Source: Escherichia coli (GTDB lineage Bacteria > Pseudomonadota > Gammaproteobacteria > Enterobacterales > Enterobacteriaceae). From it: a stretch of DNA of 64,000 nucleotides. Numbering within the stretch: position 1 is the first letter of the stretch; every line of letters begins with the position of its first letter. Made by a program: the position numbers and the translations under genes. A model generated the notes under the pieces. That model was not told the DNA's origin. It saw nothing but the letters and a program-made list of their open reading frames with translations, and searched no databases. Of the stretch, positions 85 to 48,082 are shown piece by piece. The stretch lies in the NCBI RefSeq assembly GCF_003334405.1, contig NZ_QOWM01000003.1, one strand, 5' to 3'.

Positions 85-111
85 TTATCGGCGTAAGCGG
101 GGTAAAGTTTA
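85..111 (-). promoter_or_regulatory. sigma28 (FliA) promoter for divergent fliD operon
   Basis: Minus strand reads TAAA-N15-GCCGATAA exactly (reverse complement of + strand 85-111); fliD would lie upstream beyond the window start. Confidence 0.6.
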
Positions 112-184: not shown

Positions 185-211
185 TAAAGGTTGTGAGTGA
201 CCAGACGATAA
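185..211 (+). promoter_or_regulatory. sigma28 (FliA) class-3 promoter of fliC
   Basis: TAAA(185-188)-N15-GACGATAA(204-211), one mismatch to the sigma28 -10 consensus GCCGATAA; about 77 nt upstream of fliC ATG. Confidence 0.65.
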
Positions 212-11172: not shown

Positions 11173-11248
<76 letters not shown>

Positions 11249-11302
11249 GTTTAAAAGACATCGGCCTCAAGCGGATGTCTGGCTGAAAGGCCTGAAGAAT
11301 TT

Positions 11303-11376
11303 GGCGCGTTAACAAAGCGGTTATGTAGCGGATTGCAAATCCGTCTAGTCCGGTTCGACTCCGGAACGCGCCTCCA
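11303..11376 (+). tRNA. cysT: tRNA-Cys (anticodon GCA)
   Basis: 74-nt sequence GGCGCGTTAACAAAGCGG...GAACGCGCCTCCA with encoded CCA. Confidence 0.95.
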
Positions 11377-11388
11377 CTTTCTTCCCGA

Positions 11389-11475
11389 GCCCGGATGGTG
11401 GAATCGGTAGACACAAGGGATTTAAAATCCCTCGGCGTTCGCGCTGTGCGGGTTCAAGTCCCGCTCCGGGTACCA
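11389..11475 (+). tRNA. leuZ: tRNA-Leu (anticodon TAA), long variable arm
   Basis: 87-nt sequence GCCCGGATGGTGGAATCGGTAGACAC...CGCTCCGGGTACCA. Confidence 0.95.
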
Positions 11476-19744: not shown

Positions 19745-23100
<3,356 letters not shown>

Positions 23101-23535: not shown

Positions 23536-24037
23536 AACCTGTTCCTTATTCTGTGAACTTCAGGTGACATTAAAGCTTTACTCCTAATGGAGAAACGACG
23601 CAATCCCAACTCGGTCAAACAGGTAAATATTAGTCTGATTATTAGTAAAGACAATTAATCAATCACTCCCGGTGATCATATAATTTCAAATGTAATTATA
23701 AGAAAATAGTGTACTGATTCTCCGCATTAAACAAGTGGTTAATATATGTAAAACATTTCATTAACATTAAGTTGATTGTTGCCTTTCTTTGTATTTAATT
23801 AGTTTGTTGTGCGGTAAGTGTCTGTTTAAAAATAGCTTATCTGGTATTGCATGAAAGTGATTATTTATAGCAGATGATTATTTACGGTGAGTTATTTTGA
23901 CTGTGCGCAACATCCCATTTCGATTATTCCTGTTTCATTTTTGCTTGCTAGCGTAGCGAAAAACTTTTTAACAGATTGAAATACACCCAAAACAAAAGTA
24001 TGACTTATACATTTATGTTAAGTAATTGAGTGTTTTG

Positions 24038-24053
24038 TGTGATCTGCATCACG
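24038..24053. promoter_or_regulatory. CRP binding site of the flhDC class-1 promoter
   Basis: TGTGA-TCTGCA-TCACG, 9/10 to the CRP consensus; centred about 71 bp upstream of the inferred TSS. Confidence 0.6.
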
Positions 24054-24081
24054 CATTATTGAAAATCGCAGCCCCCCTCCG

Positions 24082-24110
24082 TTGTATGTGCGTGTAGTGA
24101 CGAGTACAGT
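24082..24110 (+). promoter_or_regulatory. putative sigma70 promoter of flhDC
   Basis: Weak -35 TTGTAT and -10 TACAGT with 17-nt spacer; inferred TSS near 24117 gives the known ~198-nt flhDC leader. Confidence 0.45.
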
Positions 24111-24314
24111 TGCGTCGATTTAGGAAAAATCTTAGATAAGTGTAAAGACCCATTTCTATTTGTAAGGACATATTAAACCAAAAAGGTGGTTCTGCTTATT
24201 GCAGCTTATCGCAACTATTCTAATGCTAATTATTTTTTACCGGGGCTTCCCGGCGACATCACGGGGTGCGGTGAAACCGCATAAAAATAAAGTTGGTTAT
24301 TCTGGGTGGGAATA

Positions 24315-24665
24315 ATGCATACCTCCGAGTTGCTGAAACACATTTATGACATCAACTTGTCATATTTACTACTTGCACAGCGTTTGATTGTTCAGGACAA
24401 AGCGTCCGCTATGTTTCGTCTCGGCATAAATGAAGAAATGGCGACAACGTTAGCGGCACTGACTCTTCCGCAAATGGTTAAGCTGGCAGAAACCAATCAA
24501 CTGGTTTGTCACTTCCGTTTTGACAGCCACCAGACGATTACTCAGTTGACGCAAGATTCCCGCGTTGACGATCTCCAGCAAATTCATACCGGCATCATGC
24601 TCTCAACACGCTTGCTGAATGATGTTAATCAGCCTGAAGAAGCGCTGCGCAAGAAAAGGGCCTGA
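24315..24665 (+). CDS. flhD: flagellar master regulator FlhD (116 aa)
   Basis: Translation [19 protein letters not shown]...; an alternative GTG start at 24306 would give 119 aa. Confidence 0.93.
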
Positions 24666-24667
24666 TC

Positions 24668-25246
24668 ATGAGTGAAAAAAGCATTGTTCAGGAAGCGCGG
24701 GATATTCAGCTGGCAATGGAATTGATCACCCTGGGCGCTCGTTTGCAGATGCTGGAAAGCGAAACACAGTTAAGTCGCGGACGCCTGATAAAACTTTATA
24801 AAGAACTGCGCGGAAGCCCACCGCCGAAAGGCATGCTGCCATTCTCAACCGACTGGTTTATGACCTGGGAACAAAACGTTCATGCTTCGATGTTCTGTAA
24901 TGCATGGCAGTTTTTACTGAAAACCGGTTTGTGTAATGGCGTCGATGCGGTGATCAAAGCCTACCGTTTATACCTTGAACAGTGCCCACAAGCAGAAGAA
25001 GGACCACTGCTGGCATTAACCCGTGCCTGGACATTGGTGCGGTTTGTTGAAAGTGGATTACTGCAACTTTCCAGCTGCAACTGCTGCGGCGGCAATTTTA
25101 TTACCCACGCTCACCAGCCTGTTGGCAGCTTTGCCTGCAGCTTATGTCAACCGCCATCCCGGGCAGTAAAAAGACGTAAACTTTCCCAGAATCCTGCCGA
25201 TATTATCCCACAACTGCTGGATGAACAGAGAGTACAGGCTGTTTAA
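24668..25246 (+). CDS. flhC: flagellar master regulator FlhC (192 aa)
   Basis: Translation [27 protein letters not shown]... with C-terminal Cys-rich zinc site. Confidence 0.95.
25177..25203 (+). promoter_or_regulatory. sigma28 promoter inside the flhC 3' end (motA / MotR promoter)
   Basis: TAAA(25177-25180)-N15-GCCGATAT(25196-25203), within the last 70 nt of flhC. Confidence 0.6.
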
Positions 25247-25304
25247 CTGATACGGTGAGGCGCAACATTCCAGCAGCGGTAACGACGTACCGCTGCTTTT
25301 TTTT
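25210..25304 (+). ncRNA. motR: probable MotR sRNA (motA 5' leader-derived)
   Basis: Interval between the sigma28 promoter at 25177-25203 and the strong terminator at 25273-25304, about 95 nt; consistent with the described sigma28-dependent MotR sRNA. Confidence 0.4.
25273..25304 (+). terminator. rho-independent terminator after flhC
   Basis: 9-bp stem GCAGCGGTA/TACCGCTGC followed by T8. Confidence 0.75.
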
Positions 25305-25372
25305 GCCCCAATCGCGCGTTAACGCCTGACGACTGAACATCCTGTCATGGTCAACAGTGGAAGGATGATGTC

Positions 25373-26256
25373 GTGCTTATCTTATTAGGTTACCTGGTTG
25401 TTCTCGGTACAGTTTTCGGCGGTTATTTGATGACCGGTGGAAGCCTTGGAGCACTCTATCAACCCGCTGAACTGGTGATTATTGCCGGTGCAGGGATTGG
25501 GTCGTTTATCGTCGGCAATAATGGCAAAGCGATTAAAGGCACGCTGAAGGCGCTGCCGTTGCTGTTTCGTCGCTCCAAATACACCAAAGCAATGTATATG
25601 GATCTGCTGGCTCTGCTTTATCGGTTGATGGCGAAATCGCGGCAGATGGGGATGTTTTCGCTGGAACGTGATATTGAAAATCCCCGTGAGAGCGAGATCT
25701 TCGCCAGCTACCCACGCATCCTCGCGGATAGCGTCATGCTTGATTTTATCGTCGATTATCTGCGCCTGATTATCAGCGGTCACATGAACACCTTCGAAAT
25801 CGAAGCTCTGATGGATGAAGAGATTGAGACGCACGAAAGCGAGGCAGAAGTCCCGGCGAACAGTCTGGCGCTGGTCGGGGACTCACTTCCGGCGTTTGGT
25901 ATTGTTGCGGCTGTAATGGGGGTCGTTCACGCGTTAGGTTCAGCCGATCGTCCTGCCGCCGAGCTGGGTGCGCTTATCGCACATGCGATGGTGGGGACTT
26001 TCCTCGGCATTTTATTGGCTTACGGATTTATTTCCCCATTAGCGACTGTTTTACGTCAGAAAAGCGCCGAAACCAGCAAAATGATGCAGTGCGTCAAAGT
26101 CACTCTGCTTTCTAATCTGAACGGTTACGCACCGCCTATCGCCGTTGAGTTTGGTCGCAAAACGCTCTATTCCAGCGAACGTCCGTCGTTTATTGAACTG
26201 GAAGAGCATGTGCGTGCGGTGAAAAATCCGCAACAACAGACGACAACCGAGGAAGC

Positions 26257-26260
<4 letters not shown>
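25373..26260 (+). CDS. motA: flagellar stator protein MotA (295 aa, GTG start)
   Basis: Translation [30 protein letters not shown]... matches MotA. Confidence 0.95.
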
Positions 26261-29152
<2,892 letters not shown>

Positions 29153-29762: not shown

Positions 29763-29789
29763 TAAAGTTTCCCCCCTCCTTGCCGATAA
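29763..29789 (+). promoter_or_regulatory. sigma28 promoter of the tar-tap-cheRBYZ operon
   Basis: Perfect TAAA(29763-29766)-N15-GCCGATAA(29782-29789), about 30 nt upstream of the tar ATG. Confidence 0.7.
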
Positions 29790-29820
29790 CGAGATCAACT
29801 TGTTTTCAGGAAGGTGCCTT

Positions 29821-31479
29821 ATGATTAACCGTATCCGCGTAGTCACGCTGTTGGTAATGGTGCTGGGGGTATTCGCACTGTTACAGCTTATTTCCGGCAG
29901 TCTGTTTTTTTCTTCCCTTCACCATAGCCAGAAGAGCTTTGTGGTTTCCAATCAATTACGGGAACAGCAGGGCGAGCTGACGTCAACCTGGGATTTAATG
30001 CTGCAAACGCGCATTAACCTGAGTCGTTCAGCGGTACGGATGATGATGGATTCCTCCAATCAACAAAGTAACGCCAAAGTTGAATTGCTCGATAGCGCCA
30101 GGAAAACATTGGCGCAGGCAGCGACGCATTATAAAAAATTCAAAAGCATGGCACCGTTACCTGAAATGGTCGCTACCAGTCGTAATATTGATGAAAAATA
30201 TAAAAACTATTACACAGCGTTAACTGAACTGATTGATTATCTAGATTATGGCAATACTGGAGCTTATTTCGCTCAGCCAACCCAGGGAATGCAAAATGCA
30301 ATGGGCGAAGCGTTTGCTCAGTACGCCCTCAGCAGTGAAAAACTGTATCGCGATATCGTCACTGACAACGCAGATGATTACCGATTTGCCCAGTGGCAAC
30401 TGGCGGTTATCGCGCTGGTGGTATTGATTCTGCTGGTGGCGTGGTACGGCATTCGCCGTATGTTGCTTACTCCGCTGGCAAAAATTATTGCTCACATTCG
30501 CGAAATCGCCGGTGGTAACCTGGCGAATACCCTGACCATTGACGGGCGCAGTGAAATGGGCGACCTGGCGCAGAGCGTTTCACATATGCAACGCTCTTTG
30601 ACTGACACCGTCACTCATGTCCGCGAAGGTTCAGATGCCATCTATGCCGGTACCCGTGAAATTGCGGCGGGCAACACCGATCTTTCCTCCCGTACTGAAC
30701 AGCAGGCATCCGCGCTGGAAGAAACTGCCGCCAGCATGGAGCAGCTCACCGCGACAGTGAAGCAAAACGCCGATAACGCCCGCCAGGCCTCGCAACTGGC
30801 GCAAAGTGCCTCCGACACCGCCCAGCACGGCGGCAAAGTGGTGGATGGCGTAGTGAAAACGATGCATGAGATCGCCGATAGTTCGAAGAAAATTGCCGAC
30901 ATTATCAGCGTTATCGACGGTATTGCCTTCCAGACTAATATCCTCGCGCTGAATGCCGCGGTTGAAGCCGCGCGTGCGGGTGAACAGGGCCGTGGTTTTG
31001 CCGTGGTGGCGGGTGAAGTGCGTAATCTTGCCAGTCGCAGCGCCCAGGCGGCAAAAGAGATCAAAGCCCTCATTGAAGACTCCGTCTCACGCGTTGATAC
31101 CGGTTCGGTGCTGGTCGAAAGCGCCGGGGAAACAATGAACAATATCGTCAATGCTGTCACTCGCGTGACTGACATTATGGGCGAGATTGCATCGGCATCG
31201 GATGAACAGAGCCGTGGCATCGATCAAGTCGCATTGGCGGTTTCGGAAATGGATCGCGTCACGCAACAGAACGCATCGCTGGTGCAGGAATCAGCTGCCG
31301 CCGCCGCTGCGCTGGAAGAACAGGCGAGTCGTTTAACGCAAGCAGTTTCCGCGTTCCGTCTGGCAGCCAGCCCACTCACCAATAAACCGCAAACACCATC
31401 CCGTCCTGCCAGTGAGCAACCACCGGCTCAGCCACGACTGCGAATTGCTGAACAAGATCCAAACTGGGAAACATTTTGA
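29821..31479 (+). CDS. tar: methyl-accepting chemotaxis protein II Tar (553 aa)
   Basis: Recognised N-terminus [21 protein letters not shown]; C-terminal NWETF pentapeptide; track ORF N-extended to 29800. Confidence 0.95.
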
Positions 31480-43233: not shown

Positions 43234-44069
<836 letters not shown>

Positions 44070-47983: not shown

Positions 47984-48082
47984 CCTGATGCGCTATGCTT
48001 ATCAGGCCTACATAGTCCCTGCAATATATTGAATTAGCAAGGTTTTGTAGGCCGGATAAGGCGTTCACGCCGCATCCGGCAG
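47984..48082. repeat. BIME with two REP elements between torZ and cmoB
   Basis: GCCTGATGCGCTATGCTTATCAGGCCTAC and GTAGGCCGGATAAGGCGTTCACGCCGCATCCGGCAG. Confidence 0.6.

Follow-up and report, generated by a model that had tools for sequence, protein, structure and literature searches.

Trans-acting RNAs can arise from terminated 5' leaders, and sRNAs derived from riboswitches and attenuators are examples of this. The leader RNA of Salmonella mgtCBR is reportedly of the same kind, a leader that is released by premature termination and acts in trans (Choi et al. 2017, as cited in PMC10578931). With this type MotR of E. coli K-12 (motR, b4828) has in common that the terminated leader is a regulator in trans, while the readthrough product is the mRNA. 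MotR differs from the mgtCBR, riboswitch and attenuator leaders in that neither a ligand nor a leader peptide nor a known antiterminator has been established for it. Like UhpU, FliX and FlgO, MotR belongs to the sigma-28 regulon, binds Hfq and is derived from an untranslated region (Melamed et al., 2023; eLife 12:RP87151, PMC10578931). However, UhpU, FliX and FlgO stem from 3' UTRs, either by an internal promoter or by processing, whereas MotR originates from a 5' leader by premature termination. MotR has been described as a prominent band of ~95 nt that disappears when fliA is deleted, it co-immunoprecipitates with Hfq and it forms chimeras with specific targets (Melamed et al., 2023). The targets comprise the rpsJ/S10 leader, fliC and others; overexpression leads to more S10 (rpsJ) and to more flagellar gene expression, the number of flagella goes up, and control via S10-NusB has been proposed (Melamed et al., 2023). 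MotR is described as a trans-acting regulator besides being an attenuation product. A chromosomal seed mutant, motR-M1, has fewer flagella and lower motility, and a chance mutant termed MotR*, in which UGC at positions 6-8 is changed to GAG, was found to be "more abundant" (Melamed et al., 2023). The MotR promoter also drives motAB-cheAW, and longer bands were attributed to readthrough of the MotR terminator (Melamed et al., 2023).

We analysed a stretch of 64,000 nucleotides of E. coli DNA (here called the window) that contains the flhDC-motAB-cheAW region, the same surroundings in which motR is found (Table 1). Positions 25210-25304 of the window are 100% identical to the ncRNA motR (b4828) annotated in MG1655, which covers 1977208-1977302 on the minus strand of NC_000913.3, is 95 nt long and overlaps the 3' end of flhC; identity to MG1655 extends across the 211 nt that were compared. 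As in the annotated motR, the RNA lies between flhC and motA on the same strand and begins inside the flhC coding sequence, which holds the sigma-28 promoter as well as MotR nt 1-37. The 95-nt sequence, the promoter in flhC, the terminator, the seed and the genomic context are those of K-12, and the element itself is without difference. The original prediction had placed a sigma-28 promoter of the form TAAA-N15 within the final 70 nt of flhC and a terminator before motA, and had proposed a leader-derived sRNA of about 95 nt, described as MotR, for which it suggested a comparison with the published coordinates. Its coordinates are all confirmed and its interpretation is supported. The promoter was located at 25177-25203, the motA start at 25373, a GTG, is indeed downstream of the terminator, and the coordinate comparison identifies the RNA. 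The locus is the already described, annotated E. coli MotR, and its detection reveals nothing new about E. coli. The result does show that a published, annotated regulator can be recovered from raw sequence and that the motif-based reasoning was sound.

Table 1. Features of the flhC-motR-motA region, in window coordinates.
Feature	Position	Strand	Description and basis
flhC CDS	24668..25246	+	192 codons; ORF list; named flhC in E. coli genome annotation
Sigma-28 (FliA) promoter of motR/motAB-cheAW	25177..25203	+	Motif search, conservation, cited FliA promoter
MotR sRNA	25210..25304	+	95 nt; also 5' part of the motAB-cheAW leader
Candidate antiterminator, 5' arm	25214..25221	+	MotR nt 5-12, CUGCUGGA; flhC Leu183-Leu184-Asp185 codons
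MotR seed, nt 46-48 (GUG)	25255..25257	+	CAC in published MotR-M1; primers SM467/SM468 compared with the window sequence
Candidate antiterminator, 3' arm	25269..25276	+	MotR nt 60-67, UCCAGCAG; the first 5 nt of the terminator stem with the 3 nt preceding it
Intrinsic terminator	25272..25304	+	Stem 25272-25281/25288-25297, loop 25282-25287, U-tract 25297-25304; 3' end of MotR
motA leader remainder	25305..25372	+	68 nt; Shine-Dalgarno AAGGA; confined to readthrough transcripts
motA CDS	25373..26260	+	GTG start; ORF list; named motA in E. coli annotation

The numbering of the RNA agrees with the published constructs. Cloning primer SM001 starts with ACAACTGCTGG / ACAACTGCTGGATGAAC and gives the same +1 (Supplementary file 3 of Melamed et al., 2023), and the description of MotR* as a change of "TGC at positions 6-8" fits only a numbering in which 25210 is +1. 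Primers SM467 and SM468 change GTG to CAC at nt 46-48 (Supplementary file 3 of Melamed et al., 2023). Of 5426 complete E. coli genomes 5369 carry this region, and RefSeq annotation of E. coli genomes other than MG1655 lists flhC and motA alone under the match. No Rfam family for MotR was found, neither over the whole window at the gathering threshold nor in 25100-25450 at E-values up to 10, where only noise matches (mir-283, P31) were returned. Rfam 15 does not contain a MotR model, so no independent covariance-model match was obtained. A small ORF within MotR that was noticed by eye (AUG at nt 12-14) was rejected; it has no Shine-Dalgarno spacing, and neither its frame nor its length is kept in Salmonella.

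Transcription of MotR is attributed to a sigma-28 promoter inside flhC. The -35 element TAAACTTT at 25177-25184 is followed by an 11-nt spacer (N11) and the -10 element GCCGATAT at 25196-25203, in which GCC GAT are the codons for Ala177-Asp178 of FlhC. The motif lies, from 25177 onward, within the last 70 nt of flhC, the coding sequence of which ends at 25246, and the -10 element ends 7 nt before MotR +1, a suitable spacing for sigma-28. Two mismatches separate the motR promoter from the full consensus TAAAGTTT-N11-GCCGATAA. The shorter pattern TAAA-N15-GCCGATA, found here at 25177-25202 on the plus strand, occurs three times in the 64-kb window compared to 0.06 occurrences expected from shuffles, and five sites in the window have three or fewer mismatches to the full consensus. 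The strong ones are the motA site described here and those directly upstream of fliD, of fliC and of a tar-like gene. The first positions of the window belong to the start of fliD (minus strand), and the sites at 85-111 (minus) and 185-211 (plus) face fliD and fliC. A perfect copy of the consensus is found at 29763-29789 (plus) just upstream of an ORF at 29800-31479, which by synteny is the tar-like gene, and the Rfam sRNA C0465 (29696-29773, minus strand, 111.6 bits) overlaps this site on the opposite strand. A weak sigma-28-like match with three mismatches (21945-21971, minus) runs antisense within an otsA-like ORF; with an expectation of 0.57 matches of this kind per window, it is probably fortuitous.

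The promoter within flhC has been described before. FliA binds there and the promoter is active in E. coli and in Salmonella; no other FliA promoter is as well conserved, and Ala177-Asp178 of FlhC are constrained by the overlapping -10 element (Fitzgerald et al., bioRxiv 10.1101/188474). The promoter found here is the same one (Fitzgerald et al., 2014; bioRxiv 10.1101/188474), and our codon analysis reproduces the constraint at the -10 element. In a gapless codon alignment of flhC from 71 species the mean normalised synonymous entropy is 0.67. Two blocks, both within the last 26 codons of the gene, fall far below this value: codons 166-172 (25163-25183), spanning the -35 element along with the nucleotides immediately before it, with an entropy of 0.14, and codons 181-187 (25208-25228), which correspond to MotR +1 to +20, with an entropy of 0.05. 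Synonymous variation is zero at codons 167-172 and 177-178 in the 71 species, and Gln-Leu-Leu-Asp within codons 181-187 is always encoded by CAA CUG CUG GAU. The earlier work concerns the motA promoter only, and the constraint discussed there (bioRxiv 10.1101/188474) is that of the -10 element. The frozen synonymous sites reported here extend also to the -35 codons 167-172 and to the transcript itself from +1 to +20 (codons 182-187). The block at +1 to +20 shows the same lack of variation in Pectobacterium, Brenneria and some Serratia, taxa that lack an E. coli-type terminator. Conservation of the 5' segment thus presumably has another cause.

At the other end of the RNA, the terminator scan returned a stem of 10 pairs, 6 of which are G-C, with a loop of 6 nt followed by TTTTTTTG. 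No other terminator-like site in 24000-26500 comes close to this hairpin at 25272-25304. A 9-bp stem with T8 at 25273-25304 had been predicted, and this count is recovered if the closing A-U pair is omitted, while the end at 25304 is identical. The run of eight T (25297-25304) lies after the hairpin and 68 nt ahead of the motA GTG at 25373. In isolation the hairpin folds with -17.3 kcal/mol, and it dominates the structure of the 95-nt RNA. The fold of the whole RNA is only mildly better than that of shuffles (z = -1.8), as is expected where a single hairpin provides most of the stability. A U8 tract behind a 10-bp stem at the 3' end of MotR fits a Rho-independent terminator, which is also the Hfq-binding module. 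A bidirectional terminator was considered and rejected, as no T-run follows the hairpin on the minus strand.

The stem begins 25 nt past the flhC stop codon, and the hairpin is thus, judged by its position, also placed as terminator of the flhDC operon. This is the usual place for an operon terminator, and the position of the promoter could be set by the need to drive motA. One might therefore read the hairpin as terminator of flhDC only and the short sigma-28 transcript as a functionless by-product of an internal promoter further upstream. We consider this very improbable. The published motR-M1 phenotypes contradict a functionless by-product, because a chromosomal mutation of three bases in the seed is sufficient to lower flagella number and motility, and binding to Hfq and chimeras with specific targets likewise speak against it (Melamed et al., 2023). 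The U run and a constant predicted length of 88-96 nt are furthermore kept in 69 species. Termination of flhDC transcripts and formation of the MotR 3' end are, moreover, compatible roles of one hairpin.

Readthrough would be needless if motA mRNA came chiefly from a promoter of its own, located between the terminator and the gene. The 68-nt spacer is in principle long enough for a promoter; however, we found no evidence for one. A search of 25305-25372 for sigma-28 motifs (three or fewer mismatches) or sigma-70-like motifs on the plus strand returned no site, the spacer is poorly conserved save for the ribosome-binding site, and published work places motAB-cheAW under the control of the flhC-internal promoter (Melamed et al., 2023; bioRxiv 10.1101/188474). 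A separate motA promoter as the main source of the mRNA is accordingly scarcely credible. At the level of motifs, MotR and the motA mRNA have a common start site, with no separate promoter motif after the terminator, and the readthrough into motAB-cheAW that had been predicted agrees with the published readthrough bands and common promoter (Melamed et al., 2023). In the single-sequence fold of the spacer, a hairpin ahead of motA pairs CAUCCU (~25338) with AGGAUG and might mask the motA Shine-Dalgarno sequence. This candidate was dismissed (z of -0.5, no consensus pair by RNAalifold in 39 species), and no conserved secondary structure was found in the motA leader at 25305-25372.

The following course of events is proposed for MotR. 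FliA (sigma-28) polymerase starts at 25210 from the promoter near the flhC 3' end. Some of the transcripts end at the intrinsic terminator at 25304, releasing the 95-nt, Hfq-binding MotR, which acts in trans via the seed around nt 46-48, while the remaining transcripts read through and become motAB-cheAW mRNA. Transcripts of flhDC would presumably end at the same hairpin. We are highly confident in the core of this scheme, that is the sigma-28 start at 25210, partial termination at 25304 to yield MotR and readthrough into motAB-cheAW. Sequence identity, motifs, fold and conservation come from the present analysis; sigma-28 dependence, size, Hfq binding, targets and readthrough are taken from the literature. 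Nothing in the sequence contradicts the explanation as a MotR locus.

The arrangement of promoter and terminator is widely conserved. A FlhC scan with one genome per species found at least 588 flhC-motA loci, from which 80 loci of Enterobacterales were kept. In the 79 loci that extend far enough, motA is the next gene after flhC, in most cases with a spacer of 104-147 nt. The sigma-28 motif is found at -69 relative to the flhC end in 79 of the 80 fetched loci. In the exception, Enterobacter cloacae DSM 26481 (L069), the FlhC match ends at residue 173 and the frame stays open beyond the usual stop, reaching the terminator region; this altered 3' end of flhC suggests a frameshift or indel near the end of the gene that bears the promoter. 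The promoter at -69 together with an AGCAGCG...CGCUGCU hairpin and 6-9 U is present in 70 of the 80 loci, all from genera of Enterobacteriaceae and Erwiniaceae, and the RNA predicted in these loci measures 88-96 nt, with one outlier of 115 nt. Among 40 distinct hairpins six or seven basal pairs of the stem are invariant, and compensatory changes occur at stem pairs 7-9 (G-C/A-U at the first, U-A/A-U/C-G at the second and A-U/C-G/U-A at the third). Retention in position of promoter and hairpin, together with the compensatory changes in the stem, indicates that these are not chance features. A module of promoter plus terminator, and so a MotR-like RNA of about 90-96 nt, is kept across genera of Enterobacteriaceae and Erwiniaceae. 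In Pectobacterium and Brenneria (L073-L076, L078 and L079) the promoter is kept and an unrelated hairpin of 12-14 bp with a poor U-tract is located at about the same distance as the E. coli terminator, 90-100 nt from the predicted start. The three Serratia loci (L071, L077 and L081) have longer spacers of 144-218 nt, in which no hairpin resembling a terminator was found. A conserved stem-loop at the MotR 5' end, proposed by RNAalifold between nt 4-10 and nt 26-33, was not supported; compensatory changes are absent, and in the E. coli sequence the stem-loop has a probability below 0.01.

A further structure would add to the MotR scheme rather than replace it. MotR nt 5-12 and nt 60-67 show perfect complementarity over 8 bp, and a helix between them, which overlaps 5 of the 10 terminator pairs, could act as a weak antiterminator. 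Among the literature searched for an antiterminator in the motA leader, Melamed et al. (2023) was the only paper returned, and no mention of such a helix was found. Pairing of the two segments before the 3' arm of the terminator has been made would reduce termination on untranslated sigma-28 transcripts. On flhDC mRNA, in contrast, translating ribosomes would cover nt 1-37, and ribosomes finishing flhC would thereby mask the 5' arm, so that the terminator could work fully. The terminator shared by flhDC and MotR would in this way be gated by translation. We regard this as a tentative and on balance unlikely mechanism, although several predictions are in line with it. The helix is part of both the MFE and the centroid structure of the 78-nt nascent RNA, dominates at nascent lengths of 67-82 nt with a probability of 0.97 and is displaced only once nt 88, and with it the whole 3' arm, becomes available. 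The predicted sequestration of the terminator 5' arm is greater than in 98% of shuffles of nt 1-59 and greater than in 96% of synonymous flhC recodings. With the MotR* change (UGC 6-8 to GAG) the helix probability drops to 0.10, which would suit the published higher abundance of this mutant (Melamed et al., 2023). In addition, the 5' arm is invariant in 41 aligned sequences, the synonymous sites of flhC codons 182-187 are frozen, and UCC at nt 60-62, outside of the terminator stem, shows little or no change in the midst of variable intergenic bases.

Other observations weigh against the antiterminator helix. Covariation between nt 5-12 and nt 60-67 is absent, both arms barely vary, and the one disruptive natural change, A63C in E. 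albertii, is uncompensated. The frozen 5' segment in Pectobacterium, Brenneria and some Serratia, described above, points in the same direction. The predicted branch-migration barrier to the terminator amounts to only about 5.7 kcal/mol, and in the full-length RNA the terminator is favoured over the helix. MotR* might just as well be more abundant owing to RNA stability. If the helix were real, the terminator would insulate the class 1 flhDC operon from the class 3 motAB-cheAW operon, and one and the same terminator would be tight for flhDC and leaky for motA. The helix would then also account for the abundance of MotR* and for some of the synonymous positions that are frozen towards the flhC 3' end.

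Beyond motR, the host strain differs from MG1655. An insertion sequence, IS1H, is present upstream of flhD in MG1655, in which the antisense RNA AsflhD is annotated over the flhD start, whereas the intergenic region between uspC and flhD in the window (23536-24305) spans about 770 nt and is without an insertion sequence upstream of flhD. The fliC ORF at 288-1337 encodes 349 aa, compared to FliC of K-12, which is 498 aa long; the short ORF thus indicates a strain with a different, short H-antigen allele. Other RNA genes identified by Rfam in the window are MicL (43761-44068, plus strand, 381.9 bits), ES036/CssrF (48004-48046, minus strand, 45.5 bits) and a cluster of three tRNAs at 11173-11472 on the plus strand.
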